From UHGV virus genome UHGV-0164984: 35,681 nucleotides of DNA. One strand, written 5' to 3'. Shown in pieces: positions 1,929 to 34,126 of this stretch (within the stretch, counting starts at the first letter, position 1; each line of letters starts with the position of its first letter). A program made the translations under genes and the position numbers. The notes below the pieces were generated by a model that saw only the letters and a list, made by a program, of their open reading frames with translations, was not told where the DNA came from and did no database searches. The DNA is from a virus.

Positions 1929-3107
1929 TTAACCAGTTTGAATTTCTCCATGGGGAACAACAACCCAATCTATATGGTTTTGCGTGTAGATCTTCGTCGA
2001 CTTCGCATCGCTATGCGCCATTCGTCCTTGTGGATCAATGCCTTGCTGATCGAAAAGATGCGCTGCTAATGCTCTAATTTCGTGAAAGGTTGGCCTTTCA
2101 TCCATCAGAAGATTGTCGCATAAACCTAACTTGTCGCGCGTAGCTGAAAATGACCGACTCAAATAGTCTGGTGCAACCTGAGTGGGGTGTGAAACCTCTT
2201 TGCTGCGTTTAACCTGCCGTTCTGGGAGCCTGTGAACGACAAACGGACTGGCCACATTATCTCGGCTATCGTCAATTATCCGTTTCAACTCTTCACCAAT
2301 TGGTATTGCAACGTGTGATGCCTCTTTTTTTTGCACTTTTTGCCTGTGGATGTAAAGCGTCCCATATATGCCATTTTGTGGTTGTTCGAACCAGACACAT
2401 CCACATATACCGTCTTTAGGTTCGCGAATTGAGTAACGGATTCGCGATACTTCGAGTCGTGCATGTGTAGTCTGCAATGCTAGGTCCATTGCTGTTCTTA
2501 ACCATGGTGCAGCGGCCTGCCTGATAGCTATAAAATGCTCGAGTGACAGGCGCCGTCTTTTCTTCTCATCAGTCCTACGCATTTTTTTTCTGATGGCCGG
2601 GTTATCCAGCATTAGTGATTCATCGACCGCATAAGAGAACAACTTTTTAAGAAAGCTGACCTTTCTGTTCTGCACATTTGCGGATGCGCTGGCATGATAT
2701 TTGTTGATGTAGGTATTAACGTGTTCAAGTTCGATATCGCATGCCGGAACATTTACGAAAAACGCTTTTACGCGTAGAGCGTCATTTTTCCAGTCATCTA
2801 AGGTGCTTTGGGAAGGACGTTCGTCTTCGATAATCCGGGTCATTATGTGATCAACATGTTCAGCAAATGGTTTTGCTTCTCCGATAACACCGCCAGATTC
2901 TCTAATAAGATTATCTACTGATGGAGATAATTCTGGTCGCATCCTCAGGTTGTACTCTCTGGCGATTGCAATGGCTATTGCCCTATCCTTACCTATATTT
3001 TTCTTCTTTCCGGTAATAAGTGTGAATTTATAAACACCTCGATCTTTATCAAAAATCAGATAATCAGGAAGATGTCTGTATTCTTTTTTACGTGGCCTTG
3101 CCGCCAT
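1929..3107 (-). CDS. Tyrosine-type site-specific integrase
   Basis: 392-394 aa ORF beside att and xis; C-terminal region with conserved R/H/Y-type catalytic residues (…HSDAKSTKIYTQ); second ATG at 3107 has GAGGG SD at 6 nt. Confidence 0.9.
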   Translation of the reverse strand: MAARPRKKEYRHLPDYLIFDKDRGVYKFTLITGKKKNIGKDRAIAIAIAREYNLRMRPELSPSVDNLIRESGGVIGEAKPFAEHVDHIMTRIIEDERPSQSTLDDWKNDALRVKAFFVNVPACDIELEHVNTYINKYHASASANVQNRKVSFLKKLFSYAVDESLMLDNPAIRKKMRRTDEKKRRRLSLEHFIAIRQAAAPWLRTAMDLALQTTHARLEVSRIRYSIREPKDGICGCVWFEQPQNGIYGTLYIHRQKVQKKEASHVAIPIGEELKRIIDDSRDNVASPFVVHRLPERQVKRSKEVSHPTQVAPDYLSRSFSATRDKLGLCDNLLMDERPTFHEIRALAAHLFDQQGIDPQGRMAHSDAKSTKIYTQNHIDWVVVPHGEIQTG

Positions 3108-3109
3108 GG

Positions 3110-3319
3110 TCATCCCTCATTTATTAACTTGCGAACAGCTTGACTAACCATTGAGTCGACTCCCCATTTTTCTGTTTCGCAGACAAAAACAGAACCGTCC
3201 ACGATGCGTCCCATGAGTAGACCGTTCTCGACCCAGCGTTTTATCGTTCGGTTGTCAGGAATTGAGCCATTAGAGAATTCACGGCGTCCCCATTGGCTCG
3301 CTTTCATTAGTTTTGCCAT
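3110..3319 (-). CDS. Excisionase (lambda Xis-like winged helix)
   Basis: MAKLMKASQWGRREFS...TIKRWVENG... parallels lambda Xis (…LQEWNARQRRPRSLETVRRWVREC…); GGAG SD 8 nt upstream of ATG at 3319; stop adjoins int start. Confidence 0.7.
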   Translation of the reverse strand: MAKLMKASQWGRREFSNGSIPDNRTIKRWVENGLLMGRIVDGSVFVCETEKWGVDSMVSQAVRKLINEG

Positions 3320-18348: not shown

Positions 18349-20078
18349 GCCGGAAATCTTACCCCAACGTAAATGCTGCCAATCAGTATGCCCGTGATGT
18401 CGTGCGCGGAAAGATTGTGGCCTGCCAGTTTGTGATTCAGGCCTGCCAGCGCCATCTTGATGACCTGATGGCGGAAAAAAGTAAGTCGTTTCGTTACCGC
18501 TTCGACAAGGACCTGGCTGAACGGGCCGCCAAATTTATTCAGCTGTTGCCGCACACCAAGGGTGAGTGGGCATTCAAGAGGATGCCCATCACGCTGGAGC
18601 CGTGGCAGCTCTTTGTGATCTGCTGCGCGTTTGGCTGGGTCAATAAAGGCTCCCGGCTGCGCCGCTTCAGGGAGGTGTATACCGAAATCCCCCGTAAGAA
18701 CGGCAAATCGGCAATCTCTGCCGGTGTCGCCCTGTATTGTTTTGCCTGTGATAACGAGTTTGGCGCGGAAGTGTATTCCGGTGCCACGACGGAGAAACAG
18801 GCGTGGGAAGTCTTTCGCCCGGCGCGACTGATGTGTAAACGCACACCCATGCTGACGGAAGCGTTCGGGATTGAGGTTAACGCCTCAAACATGAACCGTC
18901 CGGAGGATGGCGCGCGGTTTGAACCGCTGATCGGTAACCCCGGTGATGGTTCATCACCCCACTGTGCTGTGGTGGATGAATATCACGAGCACGCCACCGA
19001 TGCGCTTTACACCACGATGCTTACCGGGATGGGGGCGCGACGTCAGCCACTGATGTGGGCCATCACCACCGCCGGGTACAACATTGAGGGGCCGTGCTAC
19101 GACAAGCGGCGGGAAGTCATCGAGATGCTCAACGGCTCGGTGCCTAACGATGAACTGTTCGGGATCATCTATACCGTTGATGAAGGTGACGACTGGACCG
19201 ACCCGCAGGTGCTGGAAAAAGCCAATCCAAATATTGGCGTGTCGGTTTATCGCGAATTTTTGTTAAGTCAGCAGCAGCGTGCGAAAAATAACGCCCGTCT
19301 GGCAAACGTCTTTAAAACAAAACACCTCAATATCTGGGTGTCGGCGCGTTCGGCGTATTTCAACCTGGTGAGCTGGCAGAGCTGCGAGGATAAATCACTG
19401 ACCCTTGAGCAGTTCGAGGGGCAGCCGTGCATTCTGGCCTTTGACCTGGCGCGTAAGCTGGATATGAACAGCATGGCGCGACTTTATACCCGCGAGATTG
19501 ACGGTAAAACGCATTATTACAGTGTGGCCCCGCGTTTCTGGGTACCGTATGACACGGTGTACAGCGTCGAGAAAAATGAAGATCGACGGACAGCCGAACG
19601 CTTTCAGAAATGGGTGGAAATGGGCGTTCTGACCGTTACCGATGGTGCGGAGGTGGATTATCGCTACATCCTCGAGGAGGCCAAAGCGGCGAACAAAATC
19701 AGCCCGGTCAGTGAGTCACCCATCGACCCCTTCGGGGCGACCGGGTTGTCACATGACCTTGCTGATGAAGACCTGAACCCCATCACTATCATTCAGAACT
19801 ACACCAACATGTCCGACCCGATGAAAGAGCTGGAAGCGGCAATTGAATCGGGGCGCTTTCATCATGACGGCAATCCCATCATGACCTGGTGTATCGGCAA
19901 CGTGGTCGGCAAAACCATTCCGGGTAACGATGATGTGGTGAAGCCCGTCAAAGAGCAGGCGGAAAACAAAATCGATGGTGCAGTTGCGCTGATTATGGCG
20001 GTTGGCAGAGCCATGCTGTACGAGAAAGAAGACACGCTGTCTGACCACATTGAGTCCTATGGGATCCGCTCGCTTTAA
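18345..20078 (+). CDS. Terminase large subunit
   Basis: 577 aa; ATPase and nuclease-like regions; ATGA overlap with small subunit. Confidence 0.95.
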
Positions 20079-23937: not shown

Positions 23938-24344
23938 AAATTCGTCAGGCGCAGACCAGCGCAACCTACATTCTGCCGGACCCCGGTGAACTGAATAAAC
24001 GCGTCCTGATCCGCCTGCGGGTGGATATGCCCGCGGATAACTTTGGCGTGGAGCCTCAATACCCGGTTACGTTCCGGACATGGGCGAAGGTTATCCAGAC
24101 CAGTGCCACCACCTGGCAGGAAACCGCGCAGACCGGGGACGCCATCACCCATTACATCACTATTCGTTACCGCCGGGGGATCACCGCTGATTATGAGGTG
24201 GTCTGCGGTGACAGTGTGTACCGGGTGAAACGTCAGCGCGATCTGAACGGGGCGCGGCGCTTTCTGCTGCTGGAGTGTACGGAGCTGGGCGAATGTAGGC
24301 AGAGTCACGGAGGCAACAATGACGACTTCCTTTTTGCACGTTGA
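23934..24344 (+). CDS. Head closure / head-tail adaptor protein
   Basis: 136 aa, ATGA overlap with upstream gene, structural-module position. Confidence 0.65.
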   Translation: MKIRQAQTSATYILPDPGELNKRVLIRLRVDMPADNFGVEPQYPVTFRTWAKVIQTSATTWQETAQTGDAITHYITIRYRRGITADYEVVCGDSVYRVKRQRDLNGARRFLLLECTELGECRQSHGGNNDDFLFAR

Positions 24345-24825
24345 TTTTCAGCAGCCCGCGGAGATGCGCTTTAACCGCGCCCGTGTCCGGCGGGCGTTTG
24401 TCACGATTGGTCAGCGTCATATGCGTGATGCCCGTCGGCTGGTGATGCGCCGTGCGCGGTCGGCACCGGGTGAAAACCCCGGTTATCAGACCGGACGCCT
24501 GGCTCGTTCGATTGGTTACATGGTACCCAGAGCCAGTAAACATCGCCCTGGTTTTATGGCACGTATAGCCCCTAACCAGCGTAATGGAGAGGGAAACCGC
24601 CGTATCACCGGTGATTTTTATCCGGCTTTTTTGTTCTATGGCGTGAGGCGAGGGGCAAAGCGTCGTCGCAGCCATCATCGTGGTGCATCCGGTGGCAGCG
24701 GCTGGCGACTGGCTCCACGTAATAACTTCATGGTGGAAACGCTTGAAAAGAACCGCAGCTGGACACGCTATTTTCTGGCGCGGGAATTGCGTAAATCACT
24801 GAAGCCGGAGCGACGACACAGATGA
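24319..24825 (+). CDS. Tail-completion protein (HK97 gp10-like)
   Basis: 168 aa, Arg-rich; GGAGG SD. Confidence 0.65.
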   Translation: MTTSFLHVDFQQPAEMRFNRARVRRAFVTIGQRHMRDARRLVMRRARSAPGENPGYQTGRLARSIGYMVPRASKHRPGFMARIAPNQRNGEGNRRITGDFYPAFLFYGVRRGAKRRRSHHRGASGGSGWRLAPRNNFMVETLEKNRSWTRYFLARELRKSLKPERRHR

Positions 24826-25382
24826 AACTGACGCCTGTTATTGCTGCACTGCGTGCCCGTTGTCCGTATTTTGAAAACCGGGTTGCAGGCGCGGCCCAGT
24901 TCAAAAATCTGCCGGAGGTCGGAAAGCTGAAACTCCCGGCGGCATATGTTGTACCGGGTGATGATTCTCCGGGAGAAAACAAAAGCCAGACCGACTACTG
25001 GCAGGAGCTGAAAGAGGGTTTCTCCGTGGTTGTCATACTGAGTAACGGGCGTGATGAGCGCGGTCAGTTTGCCTCGTATGATGTGGTGGACGATGTCCGG
25101 CAGATGCTCTTTAAGGCTCTGCTGGGCTGGAACCCGGAGGCGTGCGGTAACCCGATTACCTATGACGGCGGCACGCTGCTGGATCTGAATCGTCATGAGC
25201 TGATTTATCAGTTCGATTTTTCGGTCATCAGCGAGCTGACTGAAGACGATACCCGCCAGCAGGATGATCTGAACAGTCTGGATGAACTGCAAACGCTGGC
25301 GATTGATGTTGATTATCTCGAGCCCGGTAACGGGCCTGACGGCGATATCGAACATCACACCGAAATAACCCTTCCTTCCTGA
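24822..25382 (+). CDS. Tail terminator / tail-completion protein
   Basis: 186 aa; ATGA overlap; upstream of sheath. Confidence 0.6.
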   Translation: MKLTPVIAALRARCPYFENRVAGAAQFKNLPEVGKLKLPAAYVVPGDDSPGENKSQTDYWQELKEGFSVVVILSNGRDERGQFASYDVVDDVRQMLFKALLGWNPEACGNPITYDGGTLLDLNRHELIYQFDFSVISELTEDDTRQQDDLNSLDELQTLAIDVDYLEPGNGPDGDIEHHTEITLPS

Positions 25383-25390
25383 GGATCCTC

Positions 25391-25561
25391 ATGTTTGTCA
25401 AACCTGTTAAAGGGCGGTCAGTTCCTGACCCTGCCCGCGGCGACCTTTTGCCCGCCGAAGGGCGAAATGTTGACGAGAACAACTACTGGCTGCGCCGTGA
25501 AGCAGTGGGTGATATCCGGCGCGTGAATAAAAAGGTGAATACCGATGACGATAAGCTTTAA
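25391..25561 (+). CDS. Small conserved tail-module protein (56 aa)
   Basis: Not in the ORF track (under 60 aa); GAGGA SD 5 nt upstream of ATG; overlaps sheath start; basic, protein-like sequence. Confidence 0.5.
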   Translation: MFVKPVKGRSVPDPARGDLLPAEGRNVDENNYWLRREAVGDIRRVNKKVNTDDDKL

Positions 25562-27041
25562 CACCATTCCGTCGAATACGCTGGTTCCGCTGTTTTATGC
25601 GGAAATGGATAACCAGGCAGCGAATACTGCACAGGACAGCGGAGCATCGCTGCTGATTGGTCATGCCAGTAACGGTGCAGAGATTGTTGCCAACAGTCTG
25701 GTGTTGATGCCGTCGGCAGACTATGCACGCCAGATTTGTGGTGCGGGAAGTCAGCTGGCGCGTATGGTCGAGGCTTATCGCCAGACCGACCCGTTTGGTG
25801 AGCTGTATGTGATTGCCGTTCCGGAAGCCACAGGCGCGGCGGCAACGGTTACGCTGACGGTGACCGGGGAAGCAACCGAAAGCGGCACGGTGAATGTCTA
25901 TGTGGGACGTACCCGCGTGCAGGCTCCGGTGACCAACGGCGATAACGTCACGACGATTGCCAGCAGTATCCAGGATGCCATCAATGCCGTTCCGACTCTG
26001 CCGTTTACAGCTTCATCTTCGGCTGGTGTTGTCACGCTGACCGCGCGTCATAAGGGGCTTTGCGGGAATGAAATTCCTGTCAGCCTCAATTACTACGGCT
26101 TCGGTGGGGGCGAAGTGCTGCCAGCGGGCGTACAGATTGCCGTGGCGACGGGGACCGCCGGAACGGGCGCTCCGGTTCTCACCGGCGCGGTGGCTGCAAT
26201 GGCGGATGAGCCGTTTGATTATATCGGTCTGCCGTTCAACGACACGGCCTCCATTAACATGCTGGTGACCGAGATGAACGATACCAGCGGTCGCTGGAGC
26301 TATGCGCGTCAGCTGTATGGTCATGTGTATACGGCAAAGACCGGCACACTGTCAGAACTGGTGAACGCAGGTGACCAGTTTAACCAGCAGCACATCACCC
26401 TGGCGGGGTACGAAAAAGAGACCCAGACGCCTGCCGACGAGCTGGTGGCAAGCCGTACCGCCCGCGCAGCGGTGTTTATCCGCAACGATCCGGCACGTCC
26501 CACGCAGACCGGTGAGCTGGTGGGTATGCTGCCTGCGCCGAAGGGGAAACGGTTCACGATGACCGAGCAGCAGACCCTGCTGTCTCATGGCGTGGCAACG
26601 GCGTATGTCGAAAGCGGGGTGCTGCGCATTCAGCGTGATGTCACCACGTACAGGAAAAATGCTTACGGGGTTGCGGATAACAGCTACCTCGACAGCGAGA
26701 CGCTGCATACCAGTGCGTATGTACTGCGCAAACTGAAATCCGTCATTACCAGTAAGTACGGGCGTCACAAGCTTGCCAGCGACGGTACCCGCTTTGGTCC
26801 CGGTCAGGCGATTGTCACCCCGGCGGTAATCAAAGGCGAACTGCTGGCAACCTACCGTCAGCTCGAGCGTGCGGGCATCGTGGAAAACTACGAACTGTTT
26901 AAGCAGTACCTGGTTGTGGAGCGTGATGCCAGCGATCCGAACCGCCTGAACACGCTGTTCCCGCCTGACTATGTTAACCAGTTGCGTGTCTTTGCCGTGG
27001 TTAACCAGTTCCGTCTTCAGTATTCAGAGGAGTCTGCATAA
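25545..27041 (+). CDS. Contractile tail sheath protein (Mu gpL-like)
   Basis: 498 aa; size, position and sequence character of myovirus sheath. Confidence 0.9.
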   Translation: MTISFNTIPSNTLVPLFYAEMDNQAANTAQDSGASLLIGHASNGAEIVANSLVLMPSADYARQICGAGSQLARMVEAYRQTDPFGELYVIAVPEATGAAATVTLTVTGEATESGTVNVYVGRTRVQAPVTNGDNVTTIASSIQDAINAVPTLPFTASSSAGVVTLTARHKGLCGNEIPVSLNYYGFGGGEVLPAGVQIAVATGTAGTGAPVLTGAVAAMADEPFDYIGLPFNDTASINMLVTEMNDTSGRWSYARQLYGHVYTAKTGTLSELVNAGDQFNQQHITLAGYEKETQTPADELVASRTARAAVFIRNDPARPTQTGELVGMLPAPKGKRFTMTEQQTLLSHGVATAYVESGVLRIQRDVTTYRKNAYGVADNSYLDSETLHTSAYVLRKLKSVITSKYGRHKLASDGTRFGPGQAIVTPAVIKGELLATYRQLERAGIVENYELFKQYLVVERDASDPNRLNTLFPPDYVNQLRVFAVVNQFRLQYSEESA

Positions 27042-27397
27042 TGGCCCGTATCGGGGGAACCTGTTATTTCAAAATTGACGGTCAGCAGCTATCGCTGACC
27101 GGCGGCATTGAGGTGCCCATGAACAGGACGGTCAATGATGACATCATCGGCCTGGACGGTTCAGTGGACCGCAAGGAAACTCACCGTGCGCCTTATGTCA
27201 AAGGGACCTTCAAGGTGCCGAAGAATTTTCCGGTGAGCAAAATCACCTCGTCTGATGAGATGACCATCACTGCCGAGCTGGCGAACGGTCAGGTCTATGT
27301 ACTGTCGTCTGCCTGGCTGCACGGCGAAGCGAACCATAATGCCGAAGAAGGCACGGTCGATCTTGAGTTCCACGGTGAAGAAGGGGATTACCAGTAA
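27041..27397 (+). CDS. Tail tube protein
   Basis: 118 aa immediately after sheath. Confidence 0.8.
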   Translation: MARIGGTCYFKIDGQQLSLTGGIEVPMNRTVNDDIIGLDGSVDRKETHRAPYVKGTFKVPKNFPVSKITSSDEMTITAELANGQVYVLSSAWLHGEANHNAEEGTVDLEFHGEEGDYQ

Positions 27398-27666
27398 TGA
27401 AAGAGCTTGAGTTAAAGAAACCGATTATCGCTCATGGTGAGACACTCTCCGTACTGGAGTTTGATGAACCCACCGGGAAGGATGTCCGCGAGCTGGGGTA
27501 TCCCTACCAGATGAATCAGGATGAGTCCGTCAGACTTCTGGCGCATGTGGTGTCGAAATACATTGTGCGGCTGGCGAAAGTGCCGCAAAGCTCTGTCGAT
27601 CAGATGTCTCCGGCAGACCTGAATGCAGCGGCGTGGCTTGTGGCTGGTTTTTTCCTCCAGGCCTGA
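27397..27666 (+). CDS. Tail assembly chaperone (short form)
   Basis: 89 aa between tube and tape measure; ends just after slippery T_TTT_TTC. Confidence 0.7.
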   Translation: MKELELKKPIIAHGETLSVLEFDEPTGKDVRELGYPYQMNQDESVRLLAHVVSKYIVRLAKVPQSSVDQMSPADLNAAAWLVAGFFLQA

Positions 27667-27815
27667 CGGCTGAATACCTCACTGATCGATTCTTTGACTG
27701 CGCCAGCTACTGGCGCATTAATCCCTTCGAATTGCTGAATATGCCGATCAGTGAAATTCCCTTGCTGGTCAGTCAGGCAAACAGGATAGAGCAGGAGAAA
27801 CGCACACATGGCTGA
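27633..27815 (+). CDS. Tail assembly chaperone -1 frameshift extension
   Basis: ORF in -1 frame overlapping the chaperone 3' end; slippery heptamer TTTTTTC at 27648-27654; ends at tape measure start. Confidence 0.55.
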   Translation: MACGWFFPPGLTAEYLTDRFFDCASYWRINPFELLNMPISEIPLLVSQANRIEQEKRTHG

Positions 27816-29643
27816 ATTTGAGCTTAAGGCGTTGATCACCGGTGTCGACAGGCTTTCTCCCGCGCTGTCGAAAATGCAAAAGAAAATCCGGGGATTTAAA
27901 CGCCAGGCGGAAGAAGCGTCACAGGGTGGGCTGGCGCTTGGTGGCGGACTGGCAGCGGGTCTGACGCTTTCCCTGAAATCTTATGCCGATCAGGAAAACG
28001 CCGCCACCGGGCTGAAAGTCGCCATGATGGATGCGAACGGCGAGGTTGGAAAGAGCTTTCAGGACATCAATAAACTGGCTATTGGCCTGGGTAACCAGCT
28101 ACCCGGTACAACGGCTGATTTCCAGAACATGATGCAGATGCTGGTGCGTCAGGGGATCCCGGCAGAAAACATTCTTGGTGGTGTGGGTAAAGCGACAGCT
28201 TATCTTGCGGTACAACTGAAAAAAACACCGGAAGCGGCTGCTGAGTTTGCTGCAAAGATGCAGGATGCTACCGGAACGGCGTCAGAAGACATGATGGGGC
28301 TGTTCGACACTATCCAGAAGGCGTTTTATCTGGGCGTTGACGATACCAACATGTTGTCCTTCTTCACTAAAACCAGTTCTGTTCTGAAGATGGTGAATAA
28401 GGACGGACTTCAGGCTGCACAGAGCCTTGCCCCTATCAGCGTCATGATGGATCAGATGGGGATGAACGGGGAGTCGGCAGGTAATGCCCTGCGAAAAGTT
28501 ATCCAGTCCGGATTAAGCGTTAAGAAAATCAGGGACGTCAATAAAGTCATGGCCCGCCAGAAACTCGGAGTGCAGCTCGATTTTACTGACGGCAAAGGGA
28601 GTTTTGGCGGTCTTGATAACATGTTCAGGCAACTGGCAAAGCTGCGAAAACTGACCGACGTTAAGCGAACAGGTGTACTTAAGGCAATATTTGGTGATGA
28701 TGCCGAAACCCTTCAGGTGGTCAATGCTCTGATCGATAAAGGAAAGGATGGTTACGATCAGATCCAGCAGAAGATGAATAAACAGGCCAGCCTGAATAAA
28801 CGTGTTCAGGCACAGCTTGGTACGCTGTCCAACCTGTGGGAGGCAATGACAGGGACCGCAACTAACGGCCTTGCGGCTATTGGCGGCGCATTTTCTGGTG
28901 ACGCCAAAAATATCACGCAATGGCTGGGGGAGTTGGGGGAAAAATTCACGAAGTTTGCGGATGAAAATCCCCGGGTTATTCGCGGCGTCGTCGGGCTTGC
29001 TGCCGGTCTTGCGATTCTGAAACTGGGATTGATGGGCGTGGGCAGTGCCATCAGTATCGTCAGCAGGATCATGTCGATGACGCCGATTGGCATGATTGCG
29101 ACGGCGATTGCCCTGGCTGCGGGATTAATTATCACTAACTGGGATGTTGTCGGACCTTATTTTAAGAAACTCTGGGAAACCATTAGTCCTTATTTTGAGG
29201 CTGGCCGGGAACTTCTGAAGAAGGTTTTTGCCTGGTCGCCGCTGGGGATGGTGATCAATAACTGGGGACCGGTTGTTAAGTGGTTTCAGGATATGTGGGA
29301 TAAGCTGAAGCCGATTATTGAATGGTTTACCGACAGTTCCGGTGACACGGTCGATGCCATTAACTCTGCGCAGTGGGGCGCGGGTGCTTATGATGCTTAT
29401 GGGACGGGAATACCGGCGCGGGGATACACACCTTATCCGGCGGTGGATCCGGCTCAGTCAAACAACGCCTCCGATGCCACAGGCTCGAATCCCTTCATGA
29501 TTAACAAAGCTTCTGCGCCAAAAGTTGATGGTGAGATCAAGGTCTCTTTTGTGAATTCGCCTCCGGGGATGCGGGTTATGGAAACGCGATCCAGCGGTTT
29601 TGATGTCAGCCATGATGTTGGCTATACGCGCTTTGGCAGGTAA
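27808..29643 (+). CDS. Tail tape measure protein
   Basis: 611 aa, Ala/Gly-rich helical protein with hydrophobic segment. Confidence 0.9.
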   Translation: MAEFELKALITGVDRLSPALSKMQKKIRGFKRQAEEASQGGLALGGGLAAGLTLSLKSYADQENAATGLKVAMMDANGEVGKSFQDINKLAIGLGNQLPGTTADFQNMMQMLVRQGIPAENILGGVGKATAYLAVQLKKTPEAAAEFAAKMQDATGTASEDMMGLFDTIQKAFYLGVDDTNMLSFFTKTSSVLKMVNKDGLQAAQSLAPISVMMDQMGMNGESAGNALRKVIQSGLSVKKIRDVNKVMARQKLGVQLDFTDGKGSFGGLDNMFRQLAKLRKLTDVKRTGVLKAIFGDDAETLQVVNALIDKGKDGYDQIQQKMNKQASLNKRVQAQLGTLSNLWEAMTGTATNGLAAIGGAFSGDAKNITQWLGELGEKFTKFADENPRVIRGVVGLAAGLAILKLGLMGVGSAISIVSRIMSMTPIGMIATAIALAAGLIITNWDVVGPYFKKLWETISPYFEAGRELLKKVFAWSPLGMVINNWGPVVKWFQDMWDKLKPIIEWFTDSSGDTVDAINSAQWGAGAYDAYGTGIPARGYTPYPAVDPAQSNNASDATGSNPFMINKASAPKVDGEIKVSFVNSPPGMRVMETRSSGFDVSHDVGYTRFGR

Positions 29644-29666
29644 TGAAAAATTAATCTGTTAATGAG

Positions 29667-29688
29667 TCCCACTCCGGTGGGATTTTTT
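29667..29688 (+). terminator. Intrinsic terminator / attenuator after tape measure gene
   Basis: Stem TCCCAC / GTGGGA with loop TCCG followed by TTTTTT. Confidence 0.45.
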
Positions 29689-29703
29689 ATGTACGGAGTT
29701 TAT

Positions 29704-31032
29704 ATGACGTGGAAAGACAGACTTCAGGACGCGTCATTTCGCGGTGTGCCGTTTAAGGTTGAAGAAGAAAGTGCGGGAACCGGCCGTCGTGTGGAAACAC
29801 ACGAATATCCGAACCGCGACAAACCCTATACCGAAGATCTGGGAAAAGTCACTTTCCGCCCGTCCATCACGGCTTATGTGGTGGGCGATGACTGCTTTGA
29901 CCAGCGCGATCGCCTGATTGACGCGCTGAATAAACCCGGTCCCGGCACGCTTGTCCATCCGACATACGGTGAGCTGAAAGTCTGTGTTGACGGGGAAGTT
30001 CGGGTCAGCACATCGAAGAATGAAGGGCGTATTGTCCGCTTTGACCTGAAGTTTGTCGAAGCGGGAGAACTCTCTTACCCCATATCAGGTGCGGCGACGG
30101 CGCAGACGCTGATGTCATCCTGTTCTGCACTGGATGACTGCATCAGTGACAGTTTCAGAGGTTTCAGTATCGATGGCGTGGCGGATTTTGTGCAGAACGA
30201 CGTCGTCGGTAATGCCAGCACAATGCTGGGGTATGTTTCTGATGCGATGAAAGTGGTGGATTCTGCCGTATCGGATGCCGCCAGGCTGTTGCAGGGGGAT
30301 ATCTCGGTACTTCTGTCGCCGCCATCGTCAGGCAAAAATTTCGTTGAGCAGGTGCAGAAAATGTGGCGTACCGGGAAACGCCTTTATGGTAACGCCAGCG
30401 ACCTGGTCACCATGATCAAAACGCTTTCCGGTGTCAGCCTCGGCAGCGATCTGCAACCGCGCGGCGTCTGGAAAACGGACAGTAAAACCACCGCCACGGC
30501 GACGCAGCAGCGTAACGTGGTTGCCAGCACCCTTCGTACGACCGCAATCAGCGAAGCGGCGTATGCCGTCACCCGATTGCCTGCGCCAACAACTTCCGCG
30601 GTGATGCAGAATGCCGCAGTGGGGCAGGCAACAACACCCGCGCAGAGCACTGGCTGGCCTTCCGTCACGCATCCGGCACTGAACAATGCACCGGCGGTGA
30701 AAAGCACGGTTGACCTGCCAACGTGGGAAGAACTGACTGACATTCGCGACACACTGAATACGGCAATTGATAAGGAGTTGTCCCGTACAACCAGTGATGC
30801 GCTGTTTCTGGCGCTGCGCCGGGTGAAAGCAGATCTGAATGCGGATATCAACACGCGCCTTGAACAGTCTGCACGGATCATTCAGCGCACGCCGGATGAG
30901 GTTTTACCCGCGCTGGTGCTGGCGGCGACCTGGTTTGATAACGCGGCGCGTGACGGGGACATTATCCGGCGTAATGCCATTACGCATCCCGGCTTTGTGC
31001 CGGTGATCCCTCTGAAGGTGCCAGTGCAATGA
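29704..31032 (+). CDS. DNA circularization protein (Mu gpN-like) of baseplate module
   Basis: ATG at 29704 with GGAG SD; N-terminus WKDRLQDASFRGVPF...HEYPNRD resembles Mu N family. Confidence 0.8.
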   Translation: MTWKDRLQDASFRGVPFKVEEESAGTGRRVETHEYPNRDKPYTEDLGKVTFRPSITAYVVGDDCFDQRDRLIDALNKPGPGTLVHPTYGELKVCVDGEVRVSTSKNEGRIVRFDLKFVEAGELSYPISGAATAQTLMSSCSALDDCISDSFRGFSIDGVADFVQNDVVGNASTMLGYVSDAMKVVDSAVSDAARLLQGDISVLLSPPSSGKNFVEQVQKMWRTGKRLYGNASDLVTMIKTLSGVSLGSDLQPRGVWKTDSKTTATATQQRNVVASTLRTTAISEAAYAVTRLPAPTTSAVMQNAAVGQATTPAQSTGWPSVTHPALNNAPAVKSTVDLPTWEELTDIRDTLNTAIDKELSRTTSDALFLALRRVKADLNADINTRLEQSARIIQRTPDEVLPALVLAATWFDNAARDGDIIRRNAITHPGFVPVIPLKVPVQ

Positions 31033-32108
31033 ACGATAACGTCACGCTACGGGTAAATGGCCGGGAGTGGAATGGCTGGACATCGGTGCGCATCGGTGCC
31101 GGTGTTGAACGACTGGCGCGGGATTTCAGTGTGGAGATCACCCGCCAGTGGCCGGGAGATGAGGGTATCACCACGCTTCAGCCGCGCATTAAAAACGGTT
31201 CAAAAGTGGAAGTGCTGATTGGTGATGAGCTGGTGATCACTGGCTGGGTGGAGGCGACGCCCGTTCGTTACGATGCCCGTTCGGTCAGCACCGGTATTGC
31301 CGGACGCAGTCTGACCGCTGACCTGATTGACTGTGCAGCCGAACCGACACAGTTTAACGGACGATCGCTGGTACAGATTGCGCAGGCGCTTGCTGCGCCT
31401 TTCGGCATTGAGGTGGTGAACAGCGGTGCGCCGTCGGGTGTTATTCCTGATGTCCAGCCTGATCACGGTGAAACGGTGATCGAGGTGATCAACAAAATAC
31501 TCGGTCAGCAGCAGGCGCTGGCTTACGACGACTCGCACGGCAGGCTGGTGATTGGCGGTATTGGCTCAACGCGGGCACATACCGCGCTGGTACTCGGGGA
31601 AAACATCCTTTCCTGCGATACGGAGAAGAGTATCCGGGAGCGGTTTTCTGTTTACCAGGTGGCGGGGCAGCGTGCCGGAAACGACGATGATTTCGGTGAG
31701 GCCACCACCACCGCGCTGCGGGCCCGCACAGAGGACGCATTTATTGCCCGTTACCGTCCGATGTATATCAGGCAGACAGGGCAGGCTACGGGGGCAGGCT
31801 GTATTGCCCGTGCTGACTTTGAAGCCCGACAACGGGCGGCACGGACGGATGAAACCACCTATGTGGTGCAGGGCTGGCGACAGGGTAACGGTACGCTGTG
31901 GCAGCCCAACCAGCGGGTGATTGTCTTCGATCCGGTCTGTGGTTTCGATAATACCGAACTGCTTGTTTCGGAAGTCACGTTTACTCAGGACCAGAACGGC
32001 ACCCTGACGGAAATCCGTGTCGGCCCGCCTGATGCTTATCTGCCTGAACCCGAAGCCCCCGGCGCGCGGAAAAAGAAAAAAGCCAGAGTACAGGAGGACC
32101 CGTTCTGA
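31029..32108 (+). CDS. Baseplate hub protein (Mu gpP-like)
   Basis: 359 aa; ATGA overlap. Confidence 0.8.
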   Translation: MNDNVTLRVNGREWNGWTSVRIGAGVERLARDFSVEITRQWPGDEGITTLQPRIKNGSKVEVLIGDELVITGWVEATPVRYDARSVSTGIAGRSLTADLIDCAAEPTQFNGRSLVQIAQALAAPFGIEVVNSGAPSGVIPDVQPDHGETVIEVINKILGQQQALAYDDSHGRLVIGGIGSTRAHTALVLGENILSCDTEKSIRERFSVYQVAGQRAGNDDDFGEATTTALRARTEDAFIARYRPMYIRQTGQATGAGCIARADFEARQRAARTDETTYVVQGWRQGNGTLWQPNQRVIVFDPVCGFDNTELLVSEVTFTQDQNGTLTEIRVGPPDAYLPEPEAPGARKKKKARVQEDPF

Positions 32109-32656
32109 TGAGGACGATTGAAGCCATGCAGCGACAACTCCTCGGCCTGATTGGGCGGGCCGTGGTGAAAAGCATCAGTGCCGCCACGAAATGTCAGACC
32201 GTGGATGTGTCCCTGATTGCCGGTGAACCCAAAGCCGGGGTTGAGCATCTTGAACCCTACGGTTTTACCGCAAGGGCAAACAGCGGTGCAGAAGCGGTGG
32301 TGTTGTTTCCGGATGGCGACCGTTCTCATGCGGTAGTTGTTACGGTGTCGGACCGGCGCTACCGCCTGAAAGGGCTGCAGACGGGTGAGGTGGCTGTCTA
32401 TGACGATCAGGGGCAGTCCGTGATGCTGACCCGGGAGGGGATCGTGGTGGACGGTGCAGGTAAAACGATCACGTTTCGCAATGCACCTGAAGCACGTTTT
32501 GAAATGGACCTTGAAGTGACCGGACAGGTGAAAGACCTGTGCGACTCCGGCGGCACCACCATGTCAGCGATGCGGCTTGCTTATAACGGGCATCGTCACA
32601 GAGAGAACGGTCAGGGCAGTAACACCGACAAACCTGATAAAGCGATGGAGGCATGA
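32108..32656 (+). CDS. Baseplate assembly protein V / spike
   Basis: 182 aa; gpV-like. Confidence 0.8.
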   Translation: MRTIEAMQRQLLGLIGRAVVKSISAATKCQTVDVSLIAGEPKAGVEHLEPYGFTARANSGAEAVVLFPDGDRSHAVVVTVSDRRYRLKGLQTGEVAVYDDQGQSVMLTREGIVVDGAGKTITFRNAPEARFEMDLEVTGQVKDLCDSGGTTMSAMRLAYNGHRHRENGQGSNTDKPDKAMEA

Positions 32657-33081
32657 TGGAACTGTGGCTGACGGTGAACGGTAAACGCACCTGCGCCAGC
32701 GCACCGCTGGATCCGCTGACCCGCGCCGTGGTGATTTCCCTGTTCACCTGGCGGCGGGCGGAGCCTGATGACAATGCCGACGTCCCGATGGGATGGTGGG
32801 GGGATACCTGGCCTGCGGTACAGAATGACCGTTACGGCTCCCGACTGTGGCTGCTTCAGCGCAGCAAACTGACCAATCAGCTGGTGCAGACGGTAAGGGG
32901 GTATATCCGCGAATGCCTGCAATGGATGATTGATGACGGCGTGGTGTCCCGTATTGATCTGGATATCCGCCGCACCGGGATTAATGAACTGGGTAACAGT
33001 ATCACTCTCTGGCGTCGTGACGGACCGGTAATGATTTCTTTTGATGATCTGTGGAGTGCGATAACGCATGGCGGACAGTGA
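32653..33081 (+). CDS. Baseplate protein (Mu gp46-like)
   Basis: 142 aa; position between gpV-like and gpJ-like genes. Confidence 0.75.
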   Translation: MMELWLTVNGKRTCASAPLDPLTRAVVISLFTWRRAEPDDNADVPMGWWGDTWPAVQNDRYGSRLWLLQRSKLTNQLVQTVRGYIRECLQWMIDDGVVSRIDLDIRRTGINELGNSITLWRRDGPVMISFDDLWSAITHGGQ

Positions 33082-34126
33082 ATTTCAGCGCCCGACGCTG
33101 GCAGAAAATATCAGTATGCTCCGTAACGATTTATTCGCCAGGCTGGACGTCAGCGACACGCTCCGGCGCATGGATGAAGACGTGCGGGCAAAGGTGTATG
33201 CGGCGGCGCTGCATACGGTTTACGGGTACATCGATTATCTGGCAATGAATATGCTGCCTGACCTGTGCGATGAGTCCTGGCTGGCGCGACATGCTGCGAT
33301 GAAACGGTGTCCGCGCAAGGGGGCCACGGCTGCCAGCGGGTATATGCGCTGGGAAGGTGTCAGCGATGGCCTGAAGGTGACTGCCGGGAGCGTGATTCAG
33401 CGCGATGACCTGGTTCAGTACACGGCAACTGCCGATGCAACCAGCTCCGGTGGTGTCCTGCGTGTGCCGATCACTTGCTCAACTACAGGCGCGGTCGGTA
33501 ACGCTGACGACGGTACGGCATTAATCCTGGTCACGCCGGTGAATGGTCTGCCGTCTTCCGGTGTGGCTGACACCCTGACAGGCGGATTTGATACTGAAGA
33601 GCTGGAAACGTGGCGCGCCCGCGTCATTGAGCGGTATTACTGGACGCCTCAGGGCGGGGCTGACGGGGACTATGTCGTCTGGGCTAAAGAAGTGCCCGGC
33701 ATTACCCGCGCATGGACATACCGACACTGGATGGGAACGGGGACTGTCGGTGTGATGATTGCCAGCAGTGACCTGATTAATCCCATTCCGGAAGAGTCAA
33801 CGGAAACGGCGGCAAGACAACATATCGAGCCACTGGCCCCGGTGGCAGGCTCTGATTTGTATGTATTCAGGCCGGTGGCGCATAAAGTGGATTTTCATAT
33901 CCGCGTGACGCCGGACACACCGGAAATACGGGCTGCCATCACCGCGGAGTTGCGTTCGTTCTTGCTGCGTGATGGTTATCCGCAGGGAGAACTGAAGGTG
34001 TCGCGTATCAGTGAGGCGATTTCCGGTGCGAACGGGGAATACAGCCATCAGTTGCTTGCACCGGCGGACAATATCTCCATTGCAAAAAATGAACTGGCGG
34101 TACTGGGGACGATTTCATGGACGTGA
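33068..34126 (+). CDS. Baseplate J-like wedge protein
   Basis: 352 aa; baseplate J family character. Confidence 0.85.

Follow-up and report, generated by a model that had tools for sequence, protein, structure and literature searches.

A chaperone gene and its overlapping reading frame

The window, by which we mean the whole 35,681-nucleotide stretch of UHGV virus genome UHGV-0164984 that we analyzed, is an SfV/SfII-like prophage, kin of the Shigella serotype-converting phages. Its early region matches SfIV and SfII, and positions 27041-27900 are 98.4-99.3% identical to SfII, SfV, SfI, and the E. coli phage vB_EcoM-689R6. A lambda-type integrase gene lies on the minus strand at 1929-3113. Pfam matches identify the late region as a Mu-type contractile-tail module; the genes found there encode the tail terminator (24822-25382), the sheath (25545-27041), the tail tube (plus strand, 27041-27397, 118 aa; Tail_tube, E=2.4e-33), the tape measure protein (plus strand, 27808-29643, 611 aa; PhageMin_Tail, E=1e-26), a DNA_circ_N protein (29662-31032), a gp44-like hub (31029-32108), a gp45-like protein (32108-32656), and Baseplate J (33068-34126).

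The TAA stop codon of the tube gene overlaps the ATG of the following gene (TAATG), an 89-aa ORF on the plus strand (27397-27666) that ends in GCT GGT TTT TTC CTC CAG GCC TGA. Its product matches Phage_TAC_7 (PF10109), the family of P2 gpE and Mu gp41, with 56.7 bits against a cut-off of 25 (E=2.4e-15), and the match spans profile positions 2-78 of 79; P2 gpE itself scores 47.8 bits on the same model. RefSeq names the 89-aa product 'phage tail assembly protein'. By homology, the gene is a Phage_TAC_7 tail assembly chaperone, and its zero-frame product would be the gpE-like short form. The gene lies between the Tail_tube gene and the PhageMin_Tail gene, which is the order expected of a frameshifted chaperone pair. 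In tailed phages, a chaperone and a frameshift-extended version of the same chaperone build tails of the right length.

A second ORF (27633-27815, GTG start, 60 aa) overlaps the 3' end of the chaperone gene in the -1 frame (27633 mod 3 = 0 versus 27397 mod 3 = 1). A preliminary description, made from the letters of this DNA, had reported both ORFs and proposed a programmed -1 frameshift in a tail chaperone at a slippery heptamer, T_TTT_TTC, in their overlap. We confirmed the coordinates and the frames of the two ORFs and verified the phase of the heptamer, which lies at 27648-27654 on the plus strand and reads T|TTT|TTC, that is, the third base of GGT followed by Phe UUU and Phe UUC. No other in-phase X_XXY_YYZ heptamer occurs within the final 200 nt of the ORF. 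The Phage_TAC_7 score, the flanking tube and tape measure genes, and the homology to P2 gpE likewise speak for the chaperone assignment made there. The GTG at 27633, in contrast, turned out to be no meaningful start codon for the -1 ORF. The frame is already open from 27525, leaving a possible shift window of 27525-27663, or about 46 codons.

From the heptamer, the -1 frame runs on for 53 codons (PPGLTAEYLT...EKRTHG) and a TGA stop codon (the extension, plus strand, 27654-27815), while the +1 frame meets a stop after 16 codons. The extension's TGA at 27813-27815 overlaps the tape measure ATG at 27808 (ATGGCTGA), and an AGGAG Shine-Dalgarno sequence for the tape measure gene, which we read from the sequence at 27793-27797 (plus strand), falls within the extension's last codons, 10 nt before that ATG. 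A -1 shift at the heptamer is predicted to yield a fusion of 86 + 53 = 139 aa (join 27397..27654, 27654..27815), with the junction ...AAWLVAGFF|PPGLTAEYLTDR.

This fusion is annotated in none of the GenBank or RefSeq records of SfV, 689R6, SfIV, EPP-1, AH07, ST64B, phiP27, BgVeeders33, F1055, and E. coli UTI89. The SfV record carries the 89-aa protein only, the 689R6 record shows the -1 ORF as a hypothetical protein in its own right, and in both E. coli UTI89 and SfV the 141 nt equivalent to 27667-27807 are left as an intergenic gap. Nor is an extension named in the feature lists of the SfII and SfI RefSeq records or of the other E. coli matches that we sampled; among 5426 complete E. coli genomes, 918 carry the segment. 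Our literature search, whose scope did not include Xu 2004, Christie 2002, or the SfV genome paper, found no paper on a frameshift in SfV, SfII, ST64B, or P27.

Conservation of the slip site and the extension

We asked how surprising the heptamer is when considered alone. In-phase heptamers occur 40 times per 10,445 codon positions (0.38%) in the window's proxy genes, and about 0.18 heptamers are expected in the 46-codon shift window; taken alone, the heptamer is only weakly significant against chance. T_TTT_TTC is set apart from the remaining 39 by three features that none of them combines: it has its own stop within 3 codons, at least 50 open codons follow it in the -1 frame, and this frame ends on the start of the next gene. 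The decisive support comes from comparative data.

Two other loci in the window also carry runs of this kind. An in-phase T_TTT_TTG at 24627-24633 (plus strand) lies in a 168-aa ORF without a Pfam match (24319-24825), just upstream of the tail terminator; the -1 frame there is open for 29 codons, with 63 codons to the zero-frame stop, and this heptamer is probably due to chance. The minus-strand integrase gene contains two A8 runs, at 2325-2332 and 2582-2589 (T8 on the plus strand), which read as in-phase A_AAA_AAA. The -1 frame is shut within 2-10 codons of these runs, which could be slippage- or mutation-prone sites.

The extension matches phrog_32181, a family of unknown function, with E=4e-40. 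When we compared a profile of 10 extensions with P2 E', hhalign returned a probability of 86% and E=5e-6 over 35 columns, with the alignment running over the HWPPSEL / YWRINPFEL motif. The Pfam model for this domain, PF06528 (Phage_P2_GpE), has zero matches to the extension at E<=10, and a Bordetella relative matches it at E=0.012. As judged from these profile comparisons, the extension is a distant homologue of P2 E' and no member of the family by the Pfam criterion. NCBIfam holds a model for neither half of the fusion. To compare the fold of the N-domain with solved or predicted chaperone structures, we ran Foldseek with an AlphaFold2 model of moderate confidence (mean pLDDT 71), which gave no match at E<=0.001 in PDB and BFVD, and a sequence profile searched against PDB gave nothing below E=0.05. 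A search of 5.8 billion proteins returned six long single-frame "fusion" proteins (P0001-P0006), which contain indel-type frame changes or scrambled stretches and which we read as assembly errors; five of the six are singleton clusters, and the other, P0005, comprises 15 member sequences from one contig.

To survey relatives, we collected loci from GenBank phages, IMG/VR, and GTDB genomes using peptide patterns from the N-domain, leaving the Phe-Phe pair out of the patterns, and used two HMMs to find where the N-domain and the extension lie in every locus. This yielded 244 loci with 170 distinct nucleotide sequences, compared with only 12 loci from a single-protein scan; a Bordetella-type query against the viral contig collection found nothing. 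All 244 loci have the extension domain in the -1 frame. Conservation of the slip site in relatives, which the preliminary description had set as a test of its proposal, was indeed observed: an in-phase T6N heptamer sits at the domain boundary in 167 of the 170 distinct relatives (145 TTTTTTC, 15 TTTTTTG, 6 TTTTTTT, and 1 TTTTTTA), and L151, which is among the three exceptions, carries G_GGT_TTT at this point. The remaining two are the record of Paraburkholderia phage IPK and one very weak match. In the IPK record (L011, PV588664, marked "UNVERIFIED"; positions ~940-1000), the Phe-Phe pair is encoded as TTC TTC and the -1 frame opens just 9 nt before the zero-frame stop, which points to a different slip site or a sequencing error.

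The relatives fall into 16 clusters below 50% amino acid identity, from Enterobacterales, Burkholderia, Pseudomonas, and Bordetella hosts, and in 13 of the 16 the T6N heptamer is found in all members. Additional loci, with 70-83% identity, have TTTTTTC in 10 of 10 cases. In an alignment of 11 fusion proteins (21-76% identity), both Phe residues encoded by the T run are invariant and lie at the junction. Elsewhere in the surveyed ORFs, only 50% of Phe codons are TTT and only 16% of wobble bases are T; because of this, the alignments indicate that selection acts at the nucleotide level, beyond the Phe-Phe pair. In the Phage_TAC_7 lineage outside Mu, then, an in-phase T6N on an invariant Phe-Phe marks the junction, and this rule is usable for automatic annotation of the fusion.

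In the relatives, the zero-frame tail past the heptamer varies from 3 to 35 codons, and the -1 extension is 50-63 codons long with one outlier; its stop overlaps or abuts the tape measure start in nearly all relatives, with an overlap of -7 or -3 in 121 of 167. In the SfV group, the -1 frame has 26, 15, and 38 variable columns at codon positions 1, 2, and 3, a pattern that by its distribution is the signature of a translated frame. These observations bear on the simplest objection, that the heptamer is a mere Phe-Phe pair, by coincidence or as a relic, and that the 141 nt before the tape measure gene are a non-coding spacer. The weak improbability of the heptamer alone (about 0.18 expected) and the fact that RefSeq leaves the stretch unannotated would fit such a reading, but a spacer should not match phrog_32181 and P2 E', show coding-type variability in the -1 frame, and keep both its length and a stop abutting the tape measure start across 16 deep clusters. 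We give this explanation almost no credence.

The extension could instead be translated on its own, as a separate 60-aa gene starting from the GTG at 27633, with no frameshift and no fusion. That GTG is present in the ORF list, and the vB_EcoM-689R6 record and some gene callers do list a separate hypothetical protein. Even so, no SD-like sequence precedes 27633, and the heptamer is exactly the point from which the extension is conserved. Between the upstream stop and the heptamer, the -1 frame contains no ATG, GTG, or TTG in 100 of 167 relatives, P2 included, so that an independent start upstream of the slip site is impossible in most relatives; the product in P2 is a fusion. A separate gene is thus extremely improbable.

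Another possibility is that the slip occurs during transcription, with RNA polymerase dropping one U, or adding two, on the T6 run. The conserved feature is indeed a homopolymer run, but six bases are short for productive polymerase slippage, which by itself makes this route unlikely. Moreover, the run keeps to a single phase (wobble T, TTT, TTN), which matters for tandem tRNA re-pairing and not for the polymerase, and the relative with G_GGT_TTT has a ribosomal heptamer with a T4 run only. Slippage on A/T runs is used by some Shigella and E. coli genes (PMC5009743), whereas the P2 case has been described as translational (PMC3091744). Overall, we regard transcriptional slippage as very unlikely and favor a shift by the ribosome.

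A homologue from BgVeeders33, a Burkholderia gladioli phage (L008, 598-1019), has an in-phase TTTTTTC and a -1 extension. The literature describes Bg_9562, a Phage_TAC_7 protein encoded by a B. gladioli prophage, as an antifungal effector that is secreted (PMC5581363). Judged by the BgVeeders33 locus, the one that our comparison covered, this family is expected to make a frameshift fusion as well.

Slip-site context and candidate stimulators

The heptamer U_UUU_UUC permits tandem re-pairing, with both the P-site and A-site codons read by tRNA-Phe, and U_UU.U_UU.C belongs to the H_HH.U_UU.Y class that is efficient in E. coli (PMC4066793). When measured with a reporter in E. coli, frameshifting at UUUUUUC was only 0.12% for the bare heptamer, 0.89% when the IS911 stimulator was added, and 7.6% when the IS3 pseudoknot was added (PMC4066793, supplement). 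According to PMC5009743, frameshifting at sites of the P2 type is 2-3 times higher than at the lambda site. Given the 0.12% measured for the bare heptamer, the yield of the frameshift here may be low, or dependent on other context.

We looked for the elements of the canonical bacterial -1 cassette, as in dnaX, IS911, and IS3, which consists of a heptamer, a spacer, and a downstream hairpin or pseudoknot and/or an upstream SD-like element; as stimulators we counted a downstream structure at a distance of 5-9 nt or an upstream SD-like sequence at 6-17 nt. The 45 nt downstream of the heptamer fold no better than shuffled sequences (z=+0.24), and across 41 sequence clusters the mean z of the downstream fold is -0.79, with no conserved structure at the canonical distance. 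In the RNAalifold consensus, the term for covariation reaches only -0.93. The 17 nt upstream pair with the 3' end of 16S rRNA at -4.2 kcal/mol, which is the background median, and contain no SD-like stimulator. The prediction of downstream RNA structure that the preliminary description had suggested as a check thus revealed no stimulator at the canonical distance, though it did bring out an 8-bp hairpin 44 nt downstream. The lack of a canonical stimulator is in line with P2, for which no obvious stimulatory structure has been reported (PMC3091744).

Two other structures were considered and rejected. Hairpins predicted over the conserved Trp motif across the family have a mean z of -1.35, with 11 of 33 clusters below -2, but they form in different registers, indicating that there is no conserved element of this kind outside the SfV group. 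Separately, two long-range inverted repeats, GCCTGAC/GTCAGGC with arms at 27661-27667 and 27772-27778 and CACTGATCG/CGATCAGTG with arms at 27680-27688 and 27745-27753 (all plus strand), together give a predicted 118-nt structure (27661-27778) that starts 6 nt past the heptamer and has a z of about -3. We rejected it as a stimulator; compensatory changes are almost absent from relatives, and Pantoea sequences have lost the pairing.

The hairpin 44 nt 3' of the heptamer is a perfect 8-bp stem, TGCGCCAG-CTA-CTGGCGCA, predicted by RNA folding at 27699-27717 on the plus strand. It lies inside the extension, over the codons C-A-S-Y-W-R, is unique in the window, and has no match in Rfam. In the SfV group, the stem is identical in 21 of 22 sequences and the loop base alone varies, while the wobble sites flanking the hairpin vary freely; 4 of 4 degenerate codons in the stem are invariant, and outside the stem 5 of 42 are (Fisher p=0.0008, post hoc test). 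In Hamiltonella, an aphid endosymbiont, the stem is largely lost. The contig from Candidatus Hamiltonella defendens (L247, 501-943) keeps TTTTTTC, followed by the zero-frame tail TTC CCG GGA TGA, and its extension has several changes (CAHYWRLNP). From this one copy, the pattern fits a relaxed constraint on the hairpin and a maintained constraint on the slip site.

A standard stimulator would lie closer to the slip site than this hairpin does. The hairpin lies past the zero-frame stop and is reached by frameshifted ribosomes only. We consider it an unlikely possibility that a non-canonical element, for which the 27699-27717 hairpin is the candidate, takes the place of a standard stimulator in the SfV lineage and tunes either the frameshift or the coupling between translation of the extension and of the tape measure gene. 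Such an element might make ribosomes pause or queue, might affect mRNA stability, or might be a palindrome to which a protein binds. If true, tuning by the hairpin would explain how a useful amount of fusion is made from a bare U_UUU_UUC that yields about 0.1% in reporters.

The proposed frameshift and its known counterparts

Taken together, the anatomy of the locus and the phase of the heptamer, the homology of the two halves to P2 E and E', and the conservation of the slip site support the frameshift interpretation. On this comparative sequence evidence, a -1 frameshift at 27648-27654 very probably yields the 139-aa fusion beside the 89-aa chaperone. Most ribosomes would read 27397-27666 through to its stop and yield the 89-aa chaperone. 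A minority would slip with tRNA-Phe on UUU (27649-51) in the P site and tRNA-Phe on UUC (27652-54) in the A site; both tRNAs would shift one base 5' and re-pair on UUU UUU (27648-53). Reading would then restart in the -1 frame at CCU (27654) and continue for 53 codons to the UGA at 27813-15, atop the tape measure ATG, to give the 139-aa fusion (...WLVAGFF|PPGLTAEY...).

By analogy with lambda G/GT and P2 E/E+E', the N-domain shared by both products would bind the tape measure protein, and the extension would recruit the tube protein and start its polymerization. The same two systems suggest that tail assembly would require both products, with the long form at a fixed, low proportion relative to the short one, and that neither would be found in the virion. 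The site is an unannotated case of a well-known kind, and its biological novelty is low; a specialist would expect such a slip site here, and the value of the finding is chiefly one of annotation.

The preliminary description had taken lambda G/GT as its model. The logic is the same, but the nearest model is P2 E/E+E'. In P2, an experimentally established -1 frameshift leads from E to E+E'; its site, which belongs to the FETUD tail operon, is TTTTTTG (PMC3091744, which cites Christie 2002 and Xu 2004). The P2 RefSeq record gives E at 19430-19705 (91 aa), the joined E+E' (142 aa) with the -1 site at 19685, and gene T from 19850; in our own dissection, TTTTTTG lies at 19678-19684 in the same phase as the heptamer in the window. 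The P2 N-domain also belongs to Phage_TAC_7, the gene lies between the tube and tape measure genes, and the T6 run falls on the same aligned Phe-Phe column. The sizes are similar (91/142 aa versus 89/139 aa here), the 8-nt overlap between the extension's stop and the tape measure ATG is identical (ATGnnTGA), and the extension is distantly homologous to E'. In contrast, the last base of the P2 heptamer is G, placing Leu UUG in the A site, whereas here it is C, so that Phe UUC allows full re-pairing on UUU. The zero-frame tail has 6 codons in P2 and 3 here, the extension here is below detection by Pfam Phage_P2_GpE, overall identity is about 21%, and the tail module of P2 is P2-type where that of the window is Mu-type.

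Lambda gpG/gpGT is similar in that the chaperone gene lies between the major tail (tube) gene and the tape measure gene and undergoes a low-level -1 shift near its 3' end (PMC5009743). The added part of gpGT is believed to bring in the tube subunit (PMC5009743). Unlike the site described here, lambda, a siphovirus, uses the heptamer G_GGA_AAG and other tRNAs, and its protein has no detectable sequence similarity to the window's chaperone.

Mu shares with the window the sheath L, the tube M, DNA_circ_N, and baseplate genes of the gp44 and gp45 types, and its gp41 (Pfam Gp41_Mu) weakly matches Phage_TAC_7 with 24.7 bits. The Mu locus (L010, 3553-4132), however, lacks a T6 heptamer. Its extension ORF, 55 codons long, occupies the +1/-2 frame and stops 15 nt short of the tape measure start. 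This frame agrees with the -2 frameshift reported for Mu gp41 (PMC5009743). The Mu extension matches our extension profile weakly, with a probability of 12.5%. Comparison of Mu with the window therefore suggests that closely related tail modules reach the extension by different shifts.
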